Source of the DNA: Cystobasidiomycetes sp. EMM_F5
Lineage: Eukaryota
DNA: 64,000 nucleotides
Direction: 5' to 3'
Assembly (NCBI GenBank): GCA_051047955.1
Contig: JBPGPT010000022.1
Coordinates: 1 to 64,000, forward strand
The position numbers and the translations under genes are program-made. Under the pieces are notes generated by a model. The model was not told where the DNA came from and made no database searches. It saw only the letters and a list, made by a program, of their open reading frames with translations. Position 1 is the first letter of the stretch; every line of letters begins with the position of its first letter. Positions 11,077 to 27,667 of this stretch are shown here, piece after piece.

Positions 11077-13190
11077 CTACGTGTCAAGGACACACATCTC
11101 TTTGCCAATCTTGCGCGTTTGTAGTCCAAACGTTTTCGCCATATATTTTCGCGTCTTCTTGCAGAGTGGCAGCTCGGCCCATGCAGGTGACCTGCACGCT
11201 GTATGCTCAATGGCTTTCCAGATTGTAGGCTCCGGATCGATACCGTACAGCTGGACCATGTCGTCCTGCCACAAGACACGCTTGTTGCTACCAACAAGAG
11301 CTCGTGCTGTGCGGGTCGCTGCGCCGTATGATGCCCAGTGCCGGAGGTAGTACCACCAGCGATCGAGGAACCCATCGACGCCTGTGCGAAGTAGGTCATC
11401 TAGTGACCACTTTGCCATACAGGCGTGGAAGAACAACAGCGGGCGTGGCCGGGGCGGCGGGGTCACGAGTTGTGCAGAAGTTTCTGAATCGCTGCTGGAC
11501 GTCGAGCCATCTGCCTCTGCGCTGATGGGTCTCGCGGCTTGTTGAGGGTGAAGATGGGCAGACGGATCTGCTTGAAGTATACCCGCGATCCGTGTCGTAT
11601 TGGTAAAGAAGGCAGTATGCGCTCGAGAAGCAAAGTGATACGACTCCCCGAGGGCACGCAGAGCCAGCGGGAATGTATCCTGGCAATACAGTCAGTCTTC
11701 TGCGATTCGCTCAAAAGAGATTTAGCATACCTTGTCACCCCATCCTGGCGCCGATGTGCCAGTAATCAAGTCATAGTAGTACTCTGGCCCGAACGAATTG
11801 TAGTAGATGGCGAGCAGTAGCGACTTTATATATAGCAACGGTTAGCGGAGAGTATTATATTCATGTGGCAAAAATGTCAGGAATGGTTCTCTCGGTCACC
11901 AAACAAAGCGAATGCACACTGACCTTCCAATGTCGCTGCTTGTTCCACACAATCTGACCGGACTCGACAGTCTGCTCGTCGAAGAAGAGTGCAGACGGCG
12001 TGTCGCGGATGCCAGCTACAAACGGCAGCCAGTCTGATCCTGAATGCCTCCAGTAGTCTGGCCAGAGGATGGCACCGTGTTTGGCGTAGGCCTTGGAGTC
12101 GAAGAGAGCATCTGGATTTGAGATTGCAAAGTTGTCTGCGTCGAGAAAGAGTACTTCTTCGAATGACGAAAATAGCATAGCGAGAGGCTTGTACAGGTAG
12201 CCGTTGGGCGGTCGAGACCCAATGCTCCCGGGAGAGGGTGCTTCGAGATTGTAGTCTGACAGTCGTCGACACGCAATACCTTCTCGTGCTAGTTCGTCAC
12301 ACCAGCCTGGGGTTTCATCGTCTTGGTCCTTGAACCACAGCTCGACTGGCAGTTTTGATCCAGACTCGCGTAGCATGCCTAGAGCTGTCGCGGCGTAACC
12401 TGAATACCTCGCACCGGCAAACATGACTACGCCTCTACCGTTGAAGATGTTGTTGGCGGGATAATTTAACAATCTGTCAATGACGGCCTTGTGCGCATCC
12501 CGAGTCTGCTGCGCATTTTGAGCATCGATAGCACCTCTCCAGCCCGACACGGGCGCGTGCGCTTCAAACGAGTGTTGCAGCTCGCTCCACATTGTCGCCA
12601 GTGTCAGTTTGTGCTCGTCATCGAGATCTCGAGGGGGTTGGACATTGTTCGGATTTGTGCGGGCGATACTTATCGGGCAAGCGGTGAGGGATGCAGGATT
12701 GGAGGAGTCGTCTGTGTAAGCATAGTCGACTTGATGTGAAAGACTCGATGGCACTTGATCATCATCGTCTATCGGATGGATCGTCGAGCTGCTCCCGGCT
12801 GGATTCCACTTTACGACGGTTGGCGAGGACGAGGAGCTGGGAATGATGTCGGGCACAACCTGTGCAGTGTACGGTGTTGACGCTGACGCCGTGTGCCGTC
12901 GCAACACAACACACAACCCGAGAATGGTCACAAATGCACCGCCAAGGAGTACACGTTTTCTCGAGTACGGGCTTGGGAATGAAGCTGAGGACGGCGGGAG
13001 TCAGCGATGAGCACCTCGCACTCACACTCACACCCCACTCACACCGTCGCAGTCCAACGATAGGCATAGGCCCCCACTCTGCGGCCATGTTTGCACCGCT
13101 GCTGCTGGCGATGCTCGACCTGGTGCTGCTCCCAGACTCGCTCCCTCCCTTTTCGAGCAGCGAGGCCGACAGCATTGCCATTCCAGCCAT
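11077..13190 (-). CDS. GT71 alpha-1,2-mannosyltransferase (Mnn2/Mnn5-like), copy 1
   Basis: Type II anchor (RKRVLLGGAFVTILGLCVVL), GRGVVMFAG, LRESGSKLPVELW, SSFEEVLFLDADN, LWPDYW, ESGQIVWNKQRHWK, GWGDK/DTFPLAL; introns after HWK and GDK. Confidence 0.88.
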
Positions 13191-13485
13191 ATCGCTGCTG
13201 CTGCAGTCACAGCGTTGCCCAGCTGTTCGCTGTCCGGGCATCGTTTCAATAAAACCACAAAGTTGTAGACTCGCTGTTTTGCGACGCCGCAAATGGCCCT
13301 GTTGGTGCCTGAAAACCCCGATCAGGCGACCTTTATTATCGAGGGCAATATGTAAATATATGTGTGGTCGACGAGAATCGAACGCAGGGCTCCGCTGATT
13401 ACAATACTAATCTCGACAAACAGATACAATCCATTTCTAATCAAATATAGCAACCAGGATTTACTTGTTGCCAAGAGGGGTGGAC

Positions 13486-14722
13486 ACCCTTCTCCGCCTG
13501 ACGGGCACGCTCGTCAATCGTCTGCGTTAGCGGAGCCAGGGGTAGCTGCTGTGATTGAAGGTGGAGGTCCTACTAGGACGACTGCTGCTTTGGATCGTCG
13601 CCGGCGGATTGGAAAGACGACTTCGAGGGCTACTACTGCGGTCGCGGTGTCGTGCCCGGCTAGCTGGACTGTCACTGCGACCTGTCGAGACACGCACGTC
13701 AACAACCAGAGCCTGCTGCGCACCGTCGTCATCTTACCGCGCGCGAGATGATACTCGCAAAATCGAATCTGGACGGACTCGGGCTTGAAGCGCGTGCAGT
13801 ATTGACCATTCTCAAGGTACTGACAGTGTCGGCGACAGTCTTGTTCCCAGGGTACCTTGCGCTGGTGACATACGTGGCGATTTGCTAGTTGACGCAAGCA
13901 GTGCTCTCCGCAGTCGCATTGAAGGCCGTTCAACATTGTTCGAAGCCGGAGATTGGAGCATTGCTCATTCTGCTGCACCAAGCAACGTCGTGGACAGTAA
14001 CACTCTCGGCAACGACTGCTTCGGAACACCGGGTTGTTCGGGTGGATGTCGCATACGTGTCGAAGATGGCAGAAGAAGCTGTTGTTTATACTGGATTCTC
14101 CACAGCCAGGATACTCGCAGGTACCGCTGTTTCGTCTGATGGAGGTAGACGCGAGCGGTCAGGTATAGTCGCTCGCAAAAAACAAATTACTACGCACCGC
14201 CAAAGAAATGGCATGAGTGACGGTGAAATCTGAAGGGGCAGCTGTCAAGAACGCAGGTCAACGATGTGAATGAAAGAGCAGGATGCACTAGTGAGCTGGG
14301 ACGAGCCAAGACGCGTTCTGAATCAAGTGATTTGAAAGGTCTAATGATGAATGGCGATAACAATCGGTCTTGTTAGGCATCGCCACTTTTCGGGGACGAA
14401 CGCAAGCTTGAGAGTCATTGACATTGTCGTGTGAACCCTCGGCCGAGAGACATGTGCATCTCGGCAAAGATCTGTTCTGACGTCCTCTTTCTGAACAGAC
14501 CGAGCGCCGTCAGGACTCGCTGTCTTTAGCTATTCGGCGCAACAGCTTAGTAGGGGAGTTTGGCATTCTGGACATAGTCGGGACATTGCTGTAGATTTGC
14601 AACTCAATTCAGCTGTACTCTCTGGGTAAACGCTCGCGATTTGGCGACGCGGCTTTGCATACGTTGAGCAATGCGCCTGGTTCTCAAGAGAGGGCGTTGG
14701 ATACCCTTCTCCGCCTGACGGG
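13486..14722. repeat. Exact 20-bp direct repeat ACCCTTCTCCGCCTGACGGG at 13486-13505 and 14703-14722
   Basis: Read directly; both copies lie downstream (3') of zinc-finger paralogues A and B. Confidence 0.85.
13527..14214 (-). CDS. Cys/His zinc-finger-repeat protein, paralogue A (5 units); 3 exons
   Basis: MPFLWR|RNSGTCEYPGC...FCHLRH VCDIH...CREC ...DCGEH...DCRRH...FCEYH; phase-2 first intron, phase-1 last intron, Arg/Ser-rich tail. Confidence 0.75.
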
Positions 14723-14927
14723 TGTGAAGACAAGCGACATTACATTATTGCAGCCAGAGATCTGAGCAATCGGGTTTCGTGCCCTGCTTCCGCTGCTTCA
14801 GTCAATACAAGAGCATGAATGACGATGTGCAATGGGCCTGTGAATTATCTGACGTTTCTGCTTGTAGGGATCGACACTTTTCCCCAATCAATGGCAGAAC
14901 ATTGGACTGGAGACAGCTTGAACCTCG

Positions 14928-15583
14928 TCATCTTCGAGCCGGTACTCGGTATTCGATATTGAGGCTACCCTGTACTCTAGATGGCCCGGCGGCAGGACTC
15001 CCATTGCGGCTCCGGTCGGTAGAACGGCCGCTGCGCCCTCTGTTAGCTGCTTGCAGCAAGTTTGTCAACACGACAAGATATGCAGTCTTAACATACCGCA
15101 AACGACTCACGCGATGTAGGATTGCCATGTTGTCCACAATCGACTTGCATGTTAGATTTAGGCCGGCCACACCTTTGTCCGTTGGGTAGGCTTGCGAGGC
15201 AGTGTTTGCCACAATCCCTCGGAAATGGGTTCTTGGCGTTATTGCACTCGTCACCATTCACGAGCCATCGACAGTGCATGCCGCAATCATTCTCGAGATA
15301 GCAGCCGTTCCAAAAATTGAAACCTCCGCAAGCGCGATTGCCAGTCTCTTTCAGCGTCTTTGGGCACAGACATCGTCTACAGCGGTCTCCCCTGTATGCC
15401 AGAATCTCTGGGTGATGCTTGCACTTGTGCGGGAGGTGACAGACTCGACTTTCCTCCAAAGCGAATTCTGTGCAAGATGGGAATGTGCAGCGAATATTGC
15501 TGCCACTGTTTGCTACATTAGTCCGAAGGTTGATTTTATGTGGATGGCAGCAAGAGCGCGACATACCGAACTATATGAGGCAT
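14928..15583 (-). CDS. Cys/His zinc-finger-repeat protein, paralogue B (5 units); 3 exons
   Basis: MPHIVR|GSNIRCTFPSC...VCHLPH KCKHH...CRRC ...DCGMH...DCGKH...DCGQH; same intron phases; tail GRSGRSTDRSRNGSP. Confidence 0.75.
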
Positions 15584-16015
15584 TGGGACCAGAAAATAAG
15601 TGCAAAGTCGCCGGAGTTTGAGCCGAGTCTTGGTAACACGTTGAGAGCACTAGAGATGAAGGAAAGCAAAGAGCATTACAGCTCTCGTGCCATTTTATGG
15701 GTGCATTGGCGATGCCAACCTTGTCAGACAAAGACTCGCCGGTTCTCGGGGATGGACATATGCGTGGGACCGATTGATGTGGCCGAGGGAAAGCCGTGCA
15801 CTCACTTCGGCTGCTTATTGAAAGGTCACCCAACCTCGAACATGCCAGCCGGAACCGTACGTGCGGGCGCATGCGCGTGCGTAGAAGTCATGAAATCGCA
15901 GTCCCGACCACTGCAGCCAGACGGGCACATGGTTGTCATAATGTAGGCAGATTTGGCTTCAGAACCATGCTGGCCAGATGGGATGTTCTTGCAAAGCTCA
16001 CTGCACGAGGCAGAT

Positions 16016-16099
16016 CGCTCCGTCCTGCGCTCGGCGGAATCGAAGCCGAATGTGCGTTGCATTTGACCTCTGGTATGTTTGCAGTAAAAGTCTGATCCG
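16016..16099 (-). pseudogene. Truncated, frameshifted relic of the 3' end of GT71 copy 2
   Basis: GSDFYCKHTRGQMQRTFGF versus GSDFYCKRTRGQMQRTFGF at ~17680-17765; high nucleotide identity, with a 1-nt indel after FGF. Confidence 0.8.
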
Positions 16100-16517
16100 T
16101 AAGCGTTGCTCAACCAAGGTCTCAAAGGTGATTAACCGTGTCCAGCTCTGCCACAGTGCTGGATCGAATTTGGGCAGGATCCTGCATCAGAATCGATTCA
16201 CCGGCTTGAAAGGCAATGAAGTAAATTAGGTGGCTTCAGCAGAATATGTCATAGGTATGTCTCAAGACACCGGAAAGCTATCTCACATATGAGCGAGCAG
16301 ACCTGTCAGCATTGTTCTGCGCGTCAATCTACCATTTGCCTCAATGGAGCGTTTCGATGTCGCACAAGAAGGCCAGGTAGCAGAGACTGCTCAATACCGA
16401 GGACAAGGAGTACATAGCGGTTGCCCTCGCCTAAATGTAGTGACACAGCGAGCAGGATAAGAAGACAGAGTATACAATGTCGAGGCAGTGATACACGTTG
16501 ACAGGCTTAGTTCACGT

Positions 16518-17159
16518 TCAACCCCATGGATCTTGATTGGTCCAGACGCGGTTAGCTGGATCATTAGCAAAGCTAACACGCCGCCCGTTAAGGGGAGCTC
16601 TTTGAGCTGTGCCGGATCCATTGCGGCTGCGGCTGCGGCTACCTTGACCGGGACTTCGGCTGCGATTGCGATCTGTCGTATTATCGCGACCTGACCCAGT
16701 CGAAGACTGATTGTCAGAGATGAACGACGGTCAGAGCAGATCATAAACACCTACCCCGCACACTTCCATGCCTTTGGCAGTCGACCTGAGCCAGTGTCTT
16801 TATTAGATTACATTGTACTACACCGATGACAACTCGACAGTGTCGGCCGCAATCCTCTTGCCCTGTCTCGGTATTGCATGCGAGAAGGCAAGGCCGTCCC
16901 GTCTCTCGGACATACTTTGGGCATGTGCAGAGATCACAGCGGTTGACAGAAACGACCGGTCTCGATGCGTGTATAGAACACATGTGTCGCACCCAACAGA
17001 ATGGGGATCCGCTGATGCATGAATTGCTGCAGCTGGGATACTCGCAAGTGCGCGCAGTATCGAACCTAAATCGTGTCATCGGAATAGTAACAATGATATC
17101 AGTCGGGATTATCCATAAGCGCACCGCGTCCGAGCAACGCACGACATAAAACCAGGCAT
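16518..17159 (-). CDS. Cys/His zinc-finger-repeat protein, paralogue C (4 units); 3 exons
   Basis: MPGFMS|FDTARTCEYPSC...FCWVRH MCSIH...CDLC ...DCGRH...DCQRH; tail RNRSRSPGQGSRSRSRNG...GRRVSFAND. Confidence 0.75.
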
Positions 17160-17661
17160 ATTTTGGAGGGCGCGAAGGATCTTGCGTCACAATGTATGAA
17201 AGCGAGCGATGAAAGACTTCCTAATCAGAAGCCGGAACGCAGATTGGAAAGCCAAGACCGATATCGAATTTGAGTGAATTTGAGTTTCCGCGGCTGCAAA
17301 GGCGATGATGGTCCGTGGTCTGACACCATCGCCCGATCCGGTCCCATTGCGAGCCAGTCTGCAGCGCCATCACAGTGATACGCAGCTGACGAGGACTTCG
17401 CAACGCGGAACGTCGATCGGCCAGAACGCGCTCTCCGGGACAAGCCAGACTGTCGGCCTTTATCTGTGTGCAGAGCTGCAGTGTATGCCAAAGTACGTCC
17501 CCGTACGAGCATGCAACGGGCGGCGACTGTTCATTAGGGCTTTAGACACCGACAGAGAACAAGTCTGTGGGTCTTTGATGGCCAAAAAGCAGTCGACGAT
17601 AGTATGCCAGTGTTCGTATCCGTTTACGTGAGCCATGTCCGGCTGCTGTCCTGTACTGGTC

Positions 17662-19331
17662 CTAATCGATGATACACACCGCTCCATCTTGCGCTTTGCG
17701 GAATCGAAAGCCAAATGTGCGTTGCATTTGACCTCGAGTGCGTTTGCAGTAAAAGTCCGATCCGAGAGCAACACTTCGACAAGCAGTATGTTCGAGTGCT
17801 CTCCAGATATTGCGCTCTGGATCCATGTCGATCCCATAGACACGATCAAACTCCTTCTGCCATATCAGTGGCTGGTGCTGACGTAGTAGCTTCCGCATTG
17901 CGTGATACTGTCCAAGCCGCCATTGGTACCAGAAGCGAGCATACGGCTGTATCCACCATGGATCAAACAAGCTGGCGAGTGACCACTTGATGCTGTTTGA
18001 GTGCAGGAACAGAGCCCTGAACGACTTGTCTGGATGTGCAGGATCGGCTTGGACCATCGACGCCAGGGTTGTGGAATTCGTCAGGAAGGCAGATCGGGTG
18101 GGATGCGGTACAAAATGATACGGCTCATCGAGAACCTTCAGCGCCAGGGGGAAAGTGTCTTTGTCGCCGTAGCCAGCCATATCAAGAGCCAGAACAGTGT
18201 CATACCAGAATGTCACGCCGTAGAAATTATAGTAGGCCACCAGCAAAAGGGACTGCAATGCATGTCAGCATTAAGCGAGACTTCCTCCAAAATTCCTTGG
18301 TCAACCCACCTTCCAGTGACGCTTCTTGTCCCACAGTATCTGACCAGACTCTGCTGTCTGGTCGTCGAAGTAAAGAGTCGATTGCTCGTCTGTGACTCCG
18401 ACAATGTAGGGGAGCCAGACAGATCCGCCGTGCCTCCAGTAATCCTGCCAAATGACAGCACCGGTCAATTTGTAGGGCGTAGCGTCAAAGATGGTGTCTG
18501 GGTTGCTGAGGACAAAGTTGTCGGCATCGAGATAGAGAACCTCCTGAAAAGCGGAGAACAGTATGGCGAAGACCTTAAGCTGATAACCGCTAGTAAGGAG
18601 GGCCATGTGCCCTGCTGAGATGTAATCTCCTATCCGCCTGCACGTCATTCCTTCTGTCTCCAACTCTGCGCACCACCCTGGCGTTTCGTCTTTCGTGTCT
18701 TTGAACCAGACTTCGACAGGCAGACGAGAGCCAGATTCGCGTAGGATTCCCAGCGCCGTTGCTGCATACCCAGAGTACCTCGAACCAGCCATCATGACGA
18801 TGCCTTTGGCGCTAAAGAAACCGAGGGGCTGCGTGGTGTATGCTGGCAATGCTGCAACGACATTCGCATGAGCGACGCGGGCATCTAGAGCCGTTTCAGG
18901 CGTGAAATGGTTCCACTTGTCTCGGTGGGGTTCGTTGTTTACGAAGAGAGCATGCAGCCCATTCCACAGCGCTGTCAGCTGGTCGACCTCTGTATCAGTC
19001 CGGTCCAAGGGTCTCTTGATATTGTTCGGGTTTGAGCGCGACACGCTGGGACCGCAAGGAGCAACCTGAGACTGGGACTGAGGGAGCTCCACGAGATAGT
19101 CTGTACGGCCAGCGCTGAAGATGGTCAGTCGAGCCAGGGTGCTCAGCGCGACGATGACAGCGATGAAGCCATAAAGTGCCCGACGGCGGCTGGTGGAAGT
19201 CGACGAGGCTGACGAGAGCAGAGTATGTATCGTCAGTCGAGCTGGATTTCAATTCATTATATCGCACCTCCAGCAGTCCCCAGAGCAGCATAGCCAGTCT
19301 TGTCTTTGCGACGACGACTCCAAGTGACCAT
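17662..19331 (-). CDS. GT71 mannosyltransferase, copy 2
   Basis: MVTWSRRRK..| TM RRRALYGFIAVIVALSTL, KGIVMMAG, LPVEVW, VLYLDADN, WQDYW, ESGQILWDKKRHWK, GYGDKDTFPLAL (no intron at GDK). Confidence 0.88.
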
Positions 19332-19480
19332 ATCGTCTCGACAGCTAATCCCTACGCGCAGTCAGGGCTGGAGACTGCTGACGTTTACTGATGAGGACTG
19401 CAGAGTCAAGGCTGATTCCGATTTAAACATGCGTTGTGCTGACATCTAAAGCTATGAAAATGATCCTAATGATACGTAAA

Positions 19481-21460
19481 CTATCTTGTAAGGTCGCCAG
19501 ATACACACGCTCCGTCAGCAGCGCGTATTCCAAAGACCGTACGCAACCTTTCTCGCGCCTTCACGCAAGATCTATCGTTTCCGAATGAAGAGCTTTTGCA
19601 GGCCGTATACTCCAACGCCCTCCAAATCCTGGCTTCTAGGTCCATTCCCATTCTCTGCTCTAGTGCCGGCTTGACACTCAAGAGGCGCTGGCTCATTGAC
19701 AATCGAGATCGGACCGTAGACCACTTCCGCTTGAAAGCTGCAAAGAACAATTGTCGTAGCTCATCGACCCACCGCGAAGGGATAAGAGCGCGCACCGACC
19801 ATTTGATGGCATGGGCGTGCACAAACATGGGCGGGCCGGTAGGATTCGTCGGATCAGCTTGCAGCATCACGGCGCTTATGTCTGTCCCGTCGAGGTGAGC
19901 GATTTCCAAGGGTGTAGGAACGATATGGAAAGACTCGTTGAGTGCTCGCAAGGCTAGCGGAAACGTATCCTTGTCGCCCCAGCCAAAACCTTCGCCTACG
20001 GTTGCAGTCCACCAGAAATTTGGTCCGTACATATTGTAGAAGACCGTTAAGAGAAGGCTCTATACAAATGGACGTCAATATCATGCTATTACTGGTAATT
20101 GACTGCCTACCTTCCAATGTTTACGCCTGTTCCAGACAAGTTGTCCTGATTCTACGGTTTGCAGGTCAAAAAGCATGTCTGATTTCGAGTCCGACAGGCC
20201 AACCAAGTATGGCAGCCATGGCGAATTCACCGACTTCCATTTGTCCGGCCATAGTACCGCCCCGGTCTCTCTGTACACTTGCCAATCAAAGAGTTTATCT
20301 GGGTTAACGAAAGGCATACTGTCGGCATCCAACAAGAGGAATTCGTCAAACGTCGAAAAGATGGTGATCAGGGCTTTCCACTGATACGCTGACCAAAGCT
20401 GCGCCCTCTTTCTTGAGTAAGTTTGCTCAAGCCACGACATCGGATTCAGCCAATCCCACTTCGAGCCGACCTCAAGGTAGTCTGAGAGCCTGCGACACGA
20501 TGCTCCTAGTGTCTGCTCTATCTCTGCACACCATTCCGAATTCTCTTCGGCTTCGTCCTTCGTCCATATCTCTACTGGAAGTGTAGATCCAGTCGAGCGC
20601 AACACACTCAGAGTGGTTGCAGCGTATCCAGTAAACTTGGACCCTGCCAAGATGATAATTCCTCTTCGATTCGGGTACATCGGATCCGCCGAGTTTGCCG
20701 TCTCATTTGCTGTCGTTCGATCAGGATACTCAGGCAGAGCATCCACGATCCGCTGGTGAGCAAGACGTGTTTGTGAAGCGTCTTCCGAAGACATGAGATT
20801 CCGCCTGTCCGCCATCTCTGCCGTGTATGAAAGCAGACGTGGCTTGTTGGGTTTCCGCCAGCCCATCGGTCTCCACAATCGACGTGGCTGAGGGGCATTC
20901 GACGCGAACAAGCTTTCCATTTCATCCCAGAGTCGTACCAGCCTCTCCTTAGACTGCTGACTACGTTTCTGTGGTGGACAGACATAATGCTCAAATATAT
21001 TGCATTGTTCGACATCCTGCTCGTTCGCGGGTGGTGCTGCTATCGGCTCAGATGCAGGATACTGACCATTGGCAATTGGGAGAGCGCTTTCGTCGGAATG
21101 CCCTGCCAGCCGGGCAGGGGCTGCAATTGGCACGGCCTGTGGATAGACATGATACATTGCGGAAGACGATGACGACGCCGACATCGCATCTGGCGCTGTG
21201 ATTGACTGCGGAGACGGTACCGCGTTCATCGTACTGATCTCTAGATCAGCCGAAGGCGCCCAGCTTGCCGGCGCGTGCAAGTGGTACCAAAGTCCGTATG
21301 TCACGACGACCGAAATGCATATCTGGGTGATGCCGAATCTCAACGAGCCTAACGCTGCAGTCACACAGTATTCAGGCACCGTTTACTGATGAAGTCGTGC
21401 GTTTGCACTATAGCAGTACTCACCTCTTGCACGCGCCATCGCGCTCAATCGACTCGACAT
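19481..21460 (-). CDS. GT71 mannosyltransferase, copy 3 (start codon uncertain, 21439-21475)
   Basis: TM GITQICISVVVTYGLWY, RGIIILAG, LPVEIW, LLLDADS, WPDKW, ESGQLVWNRRKHWK, GWGDKDTFPLAL. Confidence 0.88.
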
Positions 21461-21692
21461 ACAGACATCATGCATGTCTGCTAAGCTCCTACTCTGCGCG
21501 CAGTCGGACACCGAAACGCTCAGGATTACCGAACCGTTTAAATGTGGTGCACAAAGGGTTGCTAATGATGCTACAGTCGGCAGTCAGCCGCACGTGTTCA
21601 CATGGGCTTCTGGGTCCTTGTGCTGTATGACTATCACTTAATGCCTTCGAATCTGACAACATCATCGCTCATACGACTGTCTACTACCAATC

Positions 21693-22671
21693 CTACAAGA
21701 ACTTCTTAGCGCTCGAGATGCCTAACCGAGAAATGCTACTAAGTCCTTGCGTTCGAGACTGCCAGAATTGCGTTGCAACTGTTACAGGACGCACCAAGTG
21801 GCCGTTCCCAGCGCGGCCAGCACCATTTGGGGTCTGTTGCCGAAGATTTGAGCCTGTTTCAAGTGGATCGCGTAAGGCCGATGATGTCAAACAACGGCAT
21901 CGTACTATGTATCTGTCGCTACTCACTTGGCTGTCCGCCATGCCGTCCGCAATCCTTCTGCGCCGGCGTCTTCGCTTCATTGCATATGCGACCAAGTATC
22001 TCGTATGTGCATTTGTGTCGACCGCAGCTCTTCCAGCTCGGCAATTTTGACTGACCGCATTTGACGCCATCCGTAAGTAAATGGCACACATGCTCTCCGC
22101 AGTGGTGCATCGGTGGCTTTTTGAGCCGGCCGCAACTGCGCCCACCGACTGGGGTTGTGCAATTGTGTCGTCCGCAAGTCTCGACGTCTCTTCCTTTTCT
22201 TCGAGTACACATCAGCTCTTTGGTGACCTGAAAACGGCAGTGTGTCCCGCAATCGATCTCGCTCAATTCCTTCATGAAGGTGCAAGAACCCAATCGACCC
22301 ATGAATTGACAGTGTCGCCCGCAGTCCTCTCCGCCTTTAATCTTGGGGCGGACACATTTACGGGAGACGCCCGTTCGAGGGTGCGTCTTGTGATGATCTG
22401 GCTTCATGCATTGACACTCATGACACGCGTCAGACACGCCGCTCGTTCTCTTCGGATGATTGATGCATGCGTGTACGTTCTCGCAGTAGTCGCTGTCAAG
22501 CAGAGCTTGCTTTGTGCAATCGGTAGCAATGCAAATTCTGGAAGCATGGAACTCCGACCTGACAGAACTTGCATCAGCTACCAACTGTAGGACGGTAAGA
22601 GCCTTCCCCGCTTACGGATGGAGTGGCGGAGGTGCGGGACGATCTTTCGTGAAATTCGTTACAGTGGACAT
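21693..22671 (-). CDS. Cys/His zinc-finger-repeat protein, paralogue D (8 units); 3 exons
   Basis: CIATDC...YCENVH ACINH...CHEC, then six C-x(8-17)-C-x10-C-G-x-H units; phase-2 first and phase-1 last introns, as in A-C. Confidence 0.8.
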
Positions 22672-23021
22672 GGTGGTGACCAGGACTGTACCCACCGGAT
22701 ACAAGGAATCGCCAGACTTGTAAGGCGGCTTTTGAAGGCTGGGCGGCAGTGCTCGATGTCAGCGTAGCAAACCGGACTCTGTTCAGCAAAATGCATCGCC
22801 TTCCGGGTCCGCGCAGTCAGCTGCGATGGTCAGGACTCCGAGGGCCAACGGGTTGGGCAGTCATTCGCGAGCGAGCAGCGAGGGGAAAAGTCAAGGTTGC
22901 TCGCTTGTTGGTATTAATTTGCGTTATCAAGGGCTGCGAGCTGACGAGTACATATCAGCAAATGATCTAATACTGATCTATGTTGCCTTCAAAAGGAGTT
23001 CGGCTGTAAAGCTCTGTTATC

Positions 23022-24837
23022 CTACATCAGCTTGTGCCCGCAAGACCGTTCATCTATTCCTCTACTGAATTGAGTTCCTAATGCCTTCTGCATGTAAGAA
23101 CGTAACGCATCGCACAACTGCTGATTGCCGAATGCCTCGCTGTAACAAGCGGTATCTTGCAGCGCATTCCAGATTAGGGACTCATTATCCATCATGGGGC
23201 TTCCGGGGTGCAATTGTGATGCTGCTTGTTGTGGCATCTCGTACAATCGCTGGTGGGAAAAGATGCGCTCCCGGAAGATCCTAAATTTGCGCTCGTGCAG
23301 GCCTCGAAACCAACCTCCGAAGGCTTTGGACCAATCTAGCAAGCCAAATACATGACCGTCTGCATGACTTTCCAGAAGTGTGGACGCGATTACGCCTTGA
23401 AGAGCCATCTTGATGGCGTTACAATGGAAGAATAGAGGCGGTCCATTGACGTCCGATGGATGCGACTGAACCATTGCAACAAGCGTACGTTTTCCTGAGG
23501 TCCGGGTTGCGAGGAAAGCGGATCGTGGAGGTCCCGGTATGAGATGAAACGGCTGCCGTAACGCCCGAAGAGCGATAGGGAACGTATCCTACAGACAATA
23601 GAAGCATTAGTCAGACCCCTTGCTGCGACATTGGCGCAGTTGTCGGACTTACTTTATCGCCCCAACCATTTCCAAGGTCTACCGTGAGCGTGTACCAGAA
23701 ATTCGGGCCTGCATAGGCATAGTAGGCTGCTAGGAGTAGAGGCTGCGATGTGTGCATTTTGTAAGCTTGCTGCTCTAGACAAATATCATTGGAGTGGCTT
23801 AGACGTACCTTCCAGTGCGTGCGCTTGTTCCACAACATCTGCCCAGACTCTACGGTTTGTTCTCCGTAGAGCATATCGGATTTATCTGCTGTCATGCCTA
23901 CGATATACGGCAGCCAGGGCGAGGTGACGTATCGCCAGTAATCCGGCCACAATACTACTCCATTGTTGCGATAATGATGATCTTCGAACAGACTGTCCGG
24001 ATTGAGGAGTGGCATGCTATCAGCGTCTAGAAAAAGCACTTCTTCAAATGTCGAAAAGAGAATTGCGAAAGTCTTCCACTGATAGGCAGACCATGGTACG
24101 TATTCCGCTGACTTTAGCCACGAGAAAGGATTGAACCAGTCGGAAGGACTACCGAGGCGAATGTATTCTGCCAGCATCCTGCATACAGCACCCTGCTCTG
24201 CAAGTTCGCTGCACCACCTTTTCCGATCTTCACTTCCATTCTTCATCCATACTTCCACTGGCAACTTTGATCCGCTCTGTCTGAGCATGCCTAGCGTTGT
24301 GGCAGCATATCCCGAGTATTTCCCTCCTGCAAGGATGACTATTCCGCGTCCGCCTCTATAAAGCGAATTTGCATTCACCAGATCCCACTCCGGTAGTCCA
24401 GATACGACATTTGCATGCGCTGAGCGCGTCTTTGCAGCATTATCTGCACCTGGAAACCCTCGTTCTGCCGCTTTCTTGGAAGTATACTCGCTGAGAGCTT
24501 TCTTGCCTAGGCGATTGAAGTACGGTCGCATCACTCTGTTTGGATGTGGAGGATTGTCTGCAAACAGTGTCTGCAGGTCTTGCCATACGCGTGCTAGACC
24601 ATCCTTTTCGTTTTGCATCCTGTCGGGCGGTACCCACTTTTGCATTTCGACAGAGCGGAGAATAGTACCGTTACATGATGACGGAGAAAGTGGTGAGATG
24701 GACGAGGGATCTGTGTATGTTGGCGCGGGAGTATAACGGCGTTGCGACCAGTATGACAGGGTCAATGCGGTCGCGACTGCAACACAGCCATACAACAAGT
24801 TTGACCACCTCCTAGACGAGCCTGCAATGAACATCAT
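23022..24837 (-). CDS. GT71 mannosyltransferase, copy 4
   Basis: TM LLYGCVAVATALTLSYW, GRGIVILAGG, LPVEVW, VLFLDADS, WPDYW, HWK intron, GWGDK intron 23589-23652. Confidence 0.88.
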
Positions 24838-25590
24838 TCGTCAGAGTATCAAATCAATATGTCTAGACGTCTCCCCACCTCTGGGAACCATCCATCTCGG
24901 CCGGACTTGGGGAGCCAAGGGTTTGGTAATGACGAGCATCATTATACGAGCGAGTCAAGTCGGGCTCCAGAGAGGCAGATTGTCAGCTCGATATCATTAC
25001 TTATTCAATCAGTCTCCATCGTCAGCACCACATTCACATCAGTTCTTTGTTCTTTCGCGGTCTGTGCCCGCAAGCCGCAAATTGTGCACGGTCGCATGCC
25101 GTAATGCCAGTGCATAGTTACTTGAGTACGCTGTAATCTCGACATGTCGATGTCATCTCCTCTCCAGGTGCTGTGAGTTGTTTTCAGGTCGGCTGCGAAG
25201 AGGAAACCCATACACTCAAATGATCTTTCAAAAGCCCTTCGCGACATAATCGACGAGGTGCTCCCCATGCGTTCATGGACTGCTTCGACTTGTTGGAGAA
25301 GGAGCCTTCATACTGAATTGCGCGTTCAGACAACTACTTGGTAACAGAGCAGCAAAATATAAAGACAACGACAAACTGTTTCTACTTCTACTGCTGCAAA
25401 GTGATTCTTGTATGATGAGCTCTATGGAACGACTTACTTATGCGTGACTGAAGTTCGAAGTGTACGCATTGCCCTGCAATGCATGTGCATGTGCGTTGCG
25501 AAATGTCTCTCTCGATATATACGATGTTTGTGGGCGGATTAAGAATACGGAGATGTGAACCCAAGCCTATTGACGTTGTCGAGCTCAATA

Positions 25591-27667
25591 TTACGACCAT
25601 GCAGGACCAGCCGCGATTCCAGGTATTCCCAATTTGCACAACCATTTCGGTGCTGACGGCGTCGGCGTGTAGCCATACGCTTTTTCACGGTATCGTCTGA
25701 CAGTCTCGCACTTGGTCGCTGATCCCATCGCGGAAGACCAGCATGCGATGTTTTGTACGACTCTCCAAATGTCCGGTTCTGGGTCGAGATTAAAGTCGTC
25801 TACTAGTTCTTTGGGTCGCAAGACTCGCCGCCCTTCCTCGAGCGCAGGACGGGCTTGAGTATTCCACGATAGCAGATCGGTGATGCCCCACTTGATGATG
25901 TTGGCGTGCAAAAACATTGGAGGACCGAATGGATCCGTGGCAGATGATTGAAGCATTCCTGTCCCTCCTCCAGTGTCGTCAATGAAGACTGTCCGGACTC
26001 CCTGCGGAATGAAGTGGAAGGATTCGCCGAGTGCGCGTAGGGCAGTTCCGAACGTGTCCTTCAGATACAATGCTCTTCAGGACCTGCGGCAGGCGGTTGG
26101 TGTATAATATCGAGCCACTCACCTTGTCTCCCCATCCAGCGTAGCCATTGGTAATGGCCATGTACCAGAACGTGGGCCCAAAGTAATTGTAGTACATGGC
26201 GAGAACGAGGGACTGTATGTCCGTAACAAGGCAAATCAGCATTGCTCACGTCCAGCACGCGTCGTAGAAATCAAAATTGCCCACCTTCCAATGCCTCCTC
26301 TTATCCCACAAGAGCTGCCCCGACTCTGCCGTTTGTGTGTCCTTGAGCATCCACGACCTTTCTCCAGTCAGGCCAATCAGGTACGGCAGCCACGGTGTTC
26401 CAGAATGACCCCAGTAATCTGGCCATACGACCGCTCCATGCTGCATGTACCCGTCCGAATCAAACACGGAATCAGGATTCATCATTACCAAATTGTCTGC
26501 GTCTAGGAGTAGAATCTCTTCAAAGCCCGAGAGGAGCATTGCGAGTGCTTTATACTGGTATCCCGACGAAAAGGGAGTCGATTTACTCGGCCCAGCCAGC
26601 CCAAAGTATCTCGATTCTTGACCAAACAAGTGTGATGGGACGTAGTCTGTCAATCTACGGCATACGGCACCTTCTGAAGGGAGTTCGTCGCACCATCCGG
26701 CAAAATGCTCTTCGGAAGCGTCACGTAGCCAGACTTCTACTGGCAGACGGGACCCAGCTGTACGGAGCATACCGAGTGCAGTCGCTGCGTACTGAGCATA
26801 GTTGCCTCCACCGAGAATGACAATTCCTCGTCCCTGAAAGAGGGTCGTGGTATTGTCATTATCGTCCTGTGGCCAGCTGGGTATCTTGTCTACGAGATCT
26901 CTGTGCGTGTCGCGCGTACGGGTTGCATCGTCTTGGGAGAGGTGGACATAGTCGTCGAGTTGAGCGTCGGTGTACTCTCTGAATGCCTGTGGTTGTTTTA
27001 CGCGTGGTATACTCACTGGCTGGGGAGGGTGCGAGTCGTAGAGTGCTTGAAGGGATTGCCAGAGCTGGGCTCGTCTGTTAGATAGATCGAGCGGAGGGGG
27101 AGAGACGGACCCCGGTGCTCCCGTCCCCGGGAGTATCTCGCTAGCCGGGATCGAGTACGCGCACTCCCCTGCAACGACGCTCGATATCGCCGACAGTCGC
27201 ATCGACACCTGCCCAATCCTCTCTGTCCCGTATATAAATAGTCCGGTGAGGATGATTGCAGTCGAGTAGACGATGATTCGGCGTGTTGTTGGACTCGTGG
27301 AAGGAGAGCGTGAGTGTGGTAGGTGTGCATGCTCCAGCTCGTCCTTGGCAGAGTACTGGCTCGTCGGAGAGCGTGTCCCATCGAGGGATGCCTGTCGGAT
27401 GGACGACGAGAGGGGGAGGAGGGCGTCTGAGGTATACGACGGTGTCAGTGCCATCAATACATTCAAAAAGTCAGCCCACCCACACTTTGCATCGCTGCTG
27501 GCAGTCCTCGAATGAGTCTTGCTCCTCCAACCGGGCACCCATCCTCTGACGGCGTTGAGTGAGCGTGCAATCATGGCTGCTGGTGATCTGCTCTCGTTAC
27601 TACCATCACCCTCCGACACCCCATCGATGTCGATGTCGTCCAGAAGAGTGCTCGTGCTGCTGTCCAT
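25591..27667 (-). CDS. GT71 mannosyltransferase, copy 5 (long cytosolic N-terminus)
   Basis: TM RRIIVYSTAIILTGLFIY, GRGIVILGGG, LPVEVW, ILLLDADN, WPDYW, HWK intron, GWGDK intron, PMFLHANIIKW. Confidence 0.88.

Follow-up and report, generated by a model that had tools for sequence, protein, structure and literature searches.

Interleaved GT71 mannosyltransferase genes and Cys/His-rich repeat genes on one strand in Cystobasidiomycetes sp. EMM_F5

INTRODUCTION

How do two unrelated gene families come to stand interleaved on a single strand, and does such an arrangement reflect a common origin, a common function, or both? The question is raised by a stretch of 64,000 nucleotides (nt) from Cystobasidiomycetes sp. 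EMM_F5 (GenBank assembly GCA_051047955.1, contig JBPGPT010000022.1, positions 1 to 64,000 of the forward strand), which we call the window. Between positions 11077 and 27667, the minus strand carries five complete genes for mannosyltransferases of family GT71, one GT71 remnant, and four paralogous genes for small proteins rich in cysteine and histidine, here named Cys/His genes A to D. We consider it moderately probable that this is an old, lineage-specific array that arose by tandem and segmental co-amplification of the two gene types. In this proposal, one GT71 gene for a Golgi mannosyltransferase and a small Cys/His gene next to it would have been amplified together by tandem or segmental duplication, and the copies would then have diverged while both kinds of gene stayed intact. 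On present evidence, the link between the two families is positional, that is, co-amplification by linkage, and not one of demonstrated function.

RESULTS

Organization of the array

The locus extends from the stop codon of the first GT71 gene (GT1) at 11077 to the ATG of the fifth (GT5) at 27667. Read as transcribed, the array runs GT5, GT4, D, GT3, GT2, C, relic, B, A, GT1. The features are as follows, by ascending coordinate.

11077..13241, minus strand: GT71-1 (GT1), 4 exons, 651 amino acids (aa); introns 13042-12985, 11923-11824, and 11730-11680; DAD motif at 12142; PF11051 match at E 7.5e-34
13527..14214, minus strand: Cys/His gene A, 3 exons, 189 aa, isoelectric point (pI) 9.5; phase-1 intron 13737-13682, then an Arg/Ser-rich tail exon; the 17-nt first exon is tentative
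14928..15564, minus strand: Cys/His gene B, 2 exons, 190 aa, pI 9.4; phase-1 intron 15110-15047, then an Arg/Ser-rich tail; exon 1 is P0001
16003..16110, minus strand: GT71 relic, 36 codons resembling the C-terminal end of GT71-2
16518..17079, minus strand: Cys/His gene C, 2 exons, 165 aa, pI 9.5; phase-1 intron 16754-16691, then an Arg/Ser-rich tail; the open reading frame (ORF) holds P0002
17662..19331, minus strand: GT71-2 (GT2), 3 exons, 517 aa; DAD motif at 18528; PF11051 match on both ORF halves
19481..21475, minus strand: GT71-3 (GT3), 3 exons, 624 aa; DAD motif at 20329; stop codon 149 nt from the GT2 ATG
21693..22671 or 22796, minus strand: Cys/His gene D, 3 exons, 285 aa (ATG at 22671) or 300 aa (ATG at 22796); phase-1 intron 21926-21854; tail not Arg/Ser-rich
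23022..24837, minus strand: GT71-4 (GT4), 3 exons, 561 aa; DAD motif at 24027; PF11051 match at E 6.5e-36
25591..27667, minus strand: GT71-5 (GT5), 3 exons, 646 aa; DAD motif at 26503; about 130 residues before the membrane anchor

All recognizable genes between 11077 and 27667 belong to one of these two families and lie on the minus strand only. We searched 26 additional ORFs, taken from both strands and from the spacers, and obtained no curated Pfam match; the sole row was PF18463, at 17 bits against a cut-off of 26.7. Searches of the same interval for Rfam families (E<=0.1), tRNAs, tandem repeats, and transposon-like terminal repeats found none. An earlier note, made from the letters of this DNA, had described the same two families in this order on one strand, with no other recognizable gene between them and both gene types retained intact. 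Pfam and tblastn searches of the window against its own ORFs confirmed the families, order, and strand, the further searches just described left the intervals free of other recognizable genes, and complete models could be built for all nine genes. The alternation of the two families is interrupted in places: A and B adjoin with no GT71 gene between them, and GT5-GT4 and GT3-GT2 are direct neighbors with no Cys/His gene between them.

At three junctions, the same-strand spacers from stop codon to ATG are very short, measuring 149 nt (19332-19480), 217 nt (21476-21692), and 285 nt (13242-13526), a spacing at which transcripts might overlap or read through.

The GT71 genes

All five GT71 models run complete from ATG to stop, encode proteins of 517 to 651 aa, and have GT-AG introns of 51 to 100 nt. 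Pfam family PF11051 (Mannosyl_trans3, CAZy GT71) matched every copy at 100.8 to 124.5 bits, against a cut-off of 22, and the C-terminal ORFs of GT2 and GT3 matched it as well. As the earlier note had claimed, each copy has a DxD motif and a type II anchor. The motif is DAD in five of five copies, in the context L-[FYL]-L-D-A-D-[NS], and is invariant in the alignment. In every copy, the highest-scoring 19-residue hydropathy window precedes the catalytic domain (scores 1.11 to 2.03, with GT4 the weakest at 1.11), and type II topology was judged by hydropathy alone.

The copies have diverged to 36-43% full-length identity. All five share an intron right after a conserved HWK; an additional phase-1 intron before the membrane anchor is found in GT1, GT2, and GT3, and an intron after GDK in GT1, GT4, and GT5. 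The first intron of GT4 (23743-23808, 66 nt, GTACGT...CAG) is open in frame, so that an ORF-based call of this gene runs through the intron and gains 22 residues. Within positions 26285-27667, GT5 has about 130 residues, rich in Ser, ahead of its anchor; the cytosolic tails of GT1 to GT4 are far shorter.

In Saccharomyces, family GT71 includes the alpha-1,2-mannosyltransferases Mnn2 and Mnn5 and the alpha-1,3-mannosyltransferases Mnn1 and Mnt2 to Mnt4. The array copies resemble these yeast enzymes, and MNN2 of Cryptococcus neoformans (CNAG_06782), in PF11051, the DAD motif, and the type II anchor. Several sources name relatives of the window copies alpha-1,2-mannosyltransferases. The only solved relative that we found is MNT2 (PDB 7xjv, E 7.5e-4), which is distant, with a match confined to the surroundings of the DxD region. 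By family membership, the GT71 proteins are most likely type II Golgi alpha-mannosyltransferases, and their divergence probably gives them different acceptor or linkage preferences on side chains of N-glycans, O-glycans, or wall mannan.

Age and distribution of the GT71 copies

We placed the copies in a GT71 tree of 94 rows, where all five fall within one 16-row clade (Shimodaira-Hasegawa-like approximate likelihood ratio test [SH-aLRT], 95). Within it, GT1 pairs with protein P0022 (66% identity), GT2 with P0054 (63%), and GT3 with P0005 (60%), each with support of 99, and GT3 and GT4 lie in a clade with Kockovaella imperatae and seven further proteins (support, 99). Because GT1, GT2, and GT3 have closer partners elsewhere, the GT71 duplications are older than the separation of this lineage from at least one other organism. 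Computed on its own, a tree of the C-terminal parts did not contradict the main tree. We rejected a mosaic origin of GT2 and GT3, in which their C-terminal parts would be mutually closest: the C-terminal tree pairs GT1 with GT2 (82/78) and resolves nothing further.

Around the window clade, which also contains the tremellomycete K. imperatae, lies a larger, well-supported group whose other named members are lichen-forming Lecanoromycetes (metagenome-assembled genomes and Xanthoria parietina). The position of the clade within this group points to patchy occurrence or, possibly, to transfer among fungi associated with lichens, a choice for which rooting and sampling are inadequate. No Cystobasidium-named protein appeared among 116 GT71 hits in that collection, where about one-quarter of the proteins are named.

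For comparison of gene neighborhoods, we used 39 metagenome loci that contain GT71 relatives (531 kb altogether); at 27-58% identity these are distant relatives and not sister genomes, and the closer partners P0022, P0054, and P0005, on contigs of 1.6-2.9 kb, are not among them. Within the DNA covered, 39 of 39 loci have a single GT71 gene. Cys/His genes gave no tblastn hit better than E 0.1 in these loci, no ORF there has at least two CG.H motifs, and none of 80 ORFs flanking the array in the window matched them. An excerpt of a published paper lists one GT71 gene for C. neoformans (PMC12493134). Since the 39 loci have one GT71 gene each, with neither a Cys/His neighbor nor a shared flank, and C. 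neoformans is listed with one in that excerpt, the five-fold GT71 array with its interleaved partner family looks specific to this lineage. The available portions of the literature on GT71 in basidiomycetes and Pucciniomycotina, on tandem GT71 genes, and on Cystobasidiomycetes mannan contained no such array.

The Cys/His genes

Proteins A to D share an N-terminal module, C-x4-C-x10-C-x3-H-x-C-x2-H-x10-C-x2-C-x-C, with six Cys and two His and one more Cys that is also invariant. The module is followed by two to six units of about 24 residues, C-x10-C-G-x-H-(x)-C, each with three Cys and one His; D has six, regular in form and 24-25 residues long. All four proteins are basic (pI 9.3-9.5). Maximum hydropathy is at most 0.5 in A, B, and D and 1.34 in C, where the peak is internal (residues ~83-101 of 165), and none of the four has an N-terminal hydrophobic segment. 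That A to D are zinc-binding nuclear proteins with nucleic acid or protein as partners, as this composition could imply, we regard as an evenly balanced prediction.

Searches for relatives of the four ORFs were negative throughout. There was no match in Pfam at E<=10 (including Zn2Cys6, C2H2, GATA, and RRM), in NCBIfam, or among PDB sequences in a profile search at E<=10, and a word-indexed protein search at near lengths found no outside relative. Three hits came from a HMMER profile search against 1.84 billion proteins, two of them the ORFs of B and C from the same 139-kb contig (singleton clusters) and the third a spurious repeat protein (E 4.9e-4). A feature search of a protein atlas ranked an Ascomycota cluster first (0.90) and an NFX1-type cluster second (0.79, a lead only); a named-cluster atlas search with gene B found nothing. 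Recognition scores in the atlas were low (1305 and 1821). The earlier note had called these genes zinc-finger genes, and as a known family this did not hold, A to D matching none in Pfam, NCBIfam, PDB, or the atlas. In the absence of a family match, the label describes Cys/His spacing and is not a family assignment. The four proteins thus appear to form a new Cys3His repeat family, with no relatives outside their own contig among the 1.84 billion proteins. The four known copies are all within the array, with none elsewhere in the window.

Two candidate identities were considered and rejected. The NF-X1-type zinc finger has the pattern C-x(1-6)-H-x-C-x3-C-[HC]-x(3-4)-[HC]-x(1-10)-C. The corresponding Pfam family gave no match at E<=10, and the full pattern occurs in none of the four proteins; its first half is found four times in D and once in each of the other three. 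As for SR proteins, A to D have no RRM in Pfam, and Arg/Ser tails are present in A, B, and C and not in D.

The four proteins are 27-40% identical by BLAST and 29-46% identical over 85 gap-free columns. Twenty alignment columns are invariant, 18 of them Cys, His, Gly, or Asp, and 16 of the 20 use more than one codon; the residues were therefore held while silent sites turned over. In all four genes, a phase-1 GT-AG intron of 56-73 nt lies directly after the last C-x2-H-G motif. The donors are GTAAGA, GTGAGT, GTAGGT, and GTGAGT, and the size range matches that of the GT71 introns; in gene C, the acceptor is the second AG past a branch-like site. The multicodon invariant columns and the shared intron argue for predicted genes that are real and under protein-level constraint.

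Duplication history

The two families are interleaved on one strand without sign of rearrangement, and duplications that spanned both gene types are therefore the simplest account of the order. Reasoning from gene order, independent duplication of two single neighbors cannot interleave their families unless further rearrangement follows. It is plausible that duplications spanned both types at least once or twice.

Alternatively, each family may have expanded independently by local tandem duplication and the two been interleaved later by inversions, transpositions, and deletions, so that a unit of GT71 and Cys/His gene never existed. The direct same-family neighbors A-B, GT5-GT4, and GT3-GT2 fit such a history, as does the lack of significant tree congruence, and the relic is evidence that short segments can be moved or copied inside the array. 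However, nine genes and the relic keep one orientation, which repeated rearrangement would be expected to disturb, and there are no transposon remains or long repeats in the array to mediate the moves. Fewer events are also needed if some duplications spanned both gene types. We consider independent expansion unlikely.

The earlier note had proposed that a unit of both genes was repeatedly co-duplicated and that trees of the two families could be compared for congruence. Co-duplication is plausible insofar as interleaving on one strand requires spanning duplications. The tree comparison added no significant support: over the 85 gap-free columns, the Cys/His quartet weakly favors (A,C|B,D), with approximately unbiased (AU) test values of 0.83 against 0.24 and 0.17. 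A full-length alignment, which includes ambiguously aligned repeats, favors the same grouping (AU 0.96 against 0.065 and 0.027). With no significant preference over the gap-free columns, congruence between the GT71 and Cys/His trees has no power.

The relic, too, had been reported in the earlier note and is present, though tiny: an 85-bp remnant (16016-16099) shares 87% nucleotide identity with the 3' terminus of GT2 (17680-17764), a likeness that exceeds that of any other pair in the array. No other GT71 remnants were found in six intergenic stretches. Since its nucleotide identity is 87% and the adjoining genes B and C share only ~32-34% protein identity, the relic is a late small copy or a conversion patch and not the marker of an old unit of GT71 and Cys/His genes.

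Against the co-amplification that we favor, or against parts of the reading built on it, several points must be counted. The quartet favors its best grouping only weakly, the adjacency of A and B weighs on co-duplication, and the relic looks much younger than its neighboring genes. The GT71 intron pattern tracks adjacency (GT5 and GT4 are alike, as are GT3 and GT2, and GT1 has all three introns) and not the sequence tree. Introns and start codons are models built from coordinates, reading frames, and GT-AG signals, with the starts of A and D the least sure. The protein collection contains just two of the four known Cys/His copies, so a search of it misses about half. For A to D, zinc binding and nuclear location are drawn from composition only, namely, Cys/His spacing, pI, the lack of an N-terminal hydrophobic segment, and the Arg/Ser tails of A to C. 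AlphaFold2 models were too poor for a fold search, with predicted local distance difference test (pLDDT) values of 34 for the core of D with four sequences and 52 for the 49-residue N-terminal module.

Possible regulation within the array

A functional link was the reading of the earlier note: the Cys/His proteins would be dedicated regulators at the transcription or RNA level, each co-duplicated with and controlling a neighboring GT71 gene, so that surface mannan is varied. Linkage is indeed tight and exclusive, with all four known copies in the array and none elsewhere in the window, and both families stayed intact over a long divergence. The basic, Cys/His-rich nature of the proteins and their Arg/Ser tails, of a kind that many nuclear proteins have, also speak for it, as do the short spacers (149-285 nt) at three junctions. 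Even the weak quartet (A,C|B,D) fits a unit of a Cys/His gene followed by a GT71 gene, with A beside GT1 and C beside the GT2-like relic.

Upstream sequences are equivocal on this point. The exact 9-mer GACTGCGCG lies at 19355-19363, 21497-21505, and 22810-22818 on the minus strand, 15-30 nt before the predicted start codons of GT2, GT3, and D (upstream start), and these three sites are three of its four exact occurrences in 64 kb. This favors regulation, but with one mismatch allowed the 9-mer is not enriched (19 matches against 23.9 expected), and its position before three putative starts is suggestive, not significant. The nine upstream regions have no motif in common; the top 7-mer is found in five of nine, against 1.1 expected, after all k-mers were tested. 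In addition, A to D match no DNA-binding or other known domain, the counts are unpaired (five GT71 genes and four Cys/His genes, with A and B adjacent), and relatives have a single GT71 gene with no such partner found beside it. Dedicated, co-duplicated regulators are accordingly a quite improbable reading of the locus, and it is very doubtful that the Cys/His proteins regulate the GT71 genes at all. Diversification of a surface glycan by the locus, also suggested in the earlier note, likewise found no support.

A short element accompanies two of the Cys/His genes.

13474..13505, minus strand: 32-nt element, copy 1, just 3' of the gene A stop codon; 88% identical to 14691-14722
14691..14722, minus strand: 32-nt element, copy 2, about 200 nt 3' of the gene B stop codon

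The element is partly self-complementary and has exactly two copies in the window. Its 88% identity is far above the 42-46% protein identity of the coding parts of A and B, and it may have a 3'-end or regulatory role.

It is highly improbable that the Cys/His ORFs are nonfunctional, decaying remains of a mobile element or old gene in the GT71 spacers: no homologue was found outside the contig, the main ORF lacks an in-frame ATG in two of the four (A and D, for which a short tentative first exon was modeled), and atlas recognition is low (1305 and 1821), but four ORFs of 159-230 codons remain open at 27-40% identity, their Cys/His positions are invariant while codons differ (16 of 20 columns), all four models are complete with a phase-1 intron and good splice signals, and there is no transposase, no terminal repeat, and no Pfam match to transposon-linked Cys clusters even at E 10.

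Genomic surroundings

The wider window holds intron-bearing, housekeeping genes, including those for Sec10, Spo7, a methyltransferase, PC4, ribosomal protein uL2, a CBP80-like MIF4G protein, IMPDH, and Vps41. The IMPDH has its top named match in Cystobasidium minutum (83%), with other named fungi at 77% or less, in keeping with a probable cystobasidiomycete-like fungus of the Pucciniomycotina, the group that the earlier note had assumed.

DISCUSSION

The array shares features with several known systems and differs from each. C. neoformans, in the excerpt cited above, and each of the 39 related loci have one GT71 gene, whereas five stand in tandem here. NF-X1-type proteins, such as NFX1 and yeast Fap1, also carry repeated short Cys/His units with a core like C-G-x-H-x-C; in contrast, A to D are much shorter proteins that lack the RING/PHD and R3H parts.

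Fungal clusters for secondary metabolites or glycolipids combine different enzymes of one pathway, usually with one regulator of a known family (Zn2Cys6 or C2H2). The array is similar in that enzyme genes lie beside genes for a putative nuclear Cys-rich protein, but it has one enzyme family and one orphan family, both multiplied and interleaved. Tandem glycosyltransferase arrays thought to vary surface glycans likewise consist of diverged paralogues placed head to tail on one strand. Here, however, the enzymes are of a eukaryotic GT-A-type Golgi family, and a second, unrelated family is interleaved with them. The GT71 copies of the window diverged anciently, and apart from the 85-bp relic there is no sign of ongoing recombination.

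The most far-reaching reading would make A to D new zinc-binding repeat regulators, multiplied cassette-wise, each tuning or switching its neighboring GT71 gene to give a programmable mannan coat, possibly in a lichen- or surface-associated yeast. From the sequence features at hand, we hold this to be very unlikely. If it were true, bacterial glycan-variation loci would have a eukaryotic counterpart here, one with the regulators built into the array.

Co-amplification by linkage, the origin that we favor, gives the locus an interest of its own. The array adds a candidate new orphan family of Cys3His repeat proteins, and its old, five-fold GT71 expansion, where one copy is usual, offers a set of paralogues for mapping acceptor and linkage choice. 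Should the array work as a unit, it would offer one of the few eukaryotic examples in which an enzyme family was amplified jointly with a family of private regulators, and an entry point for studying how the mannose-rich surface of basidiomycete yeasts is shaped.

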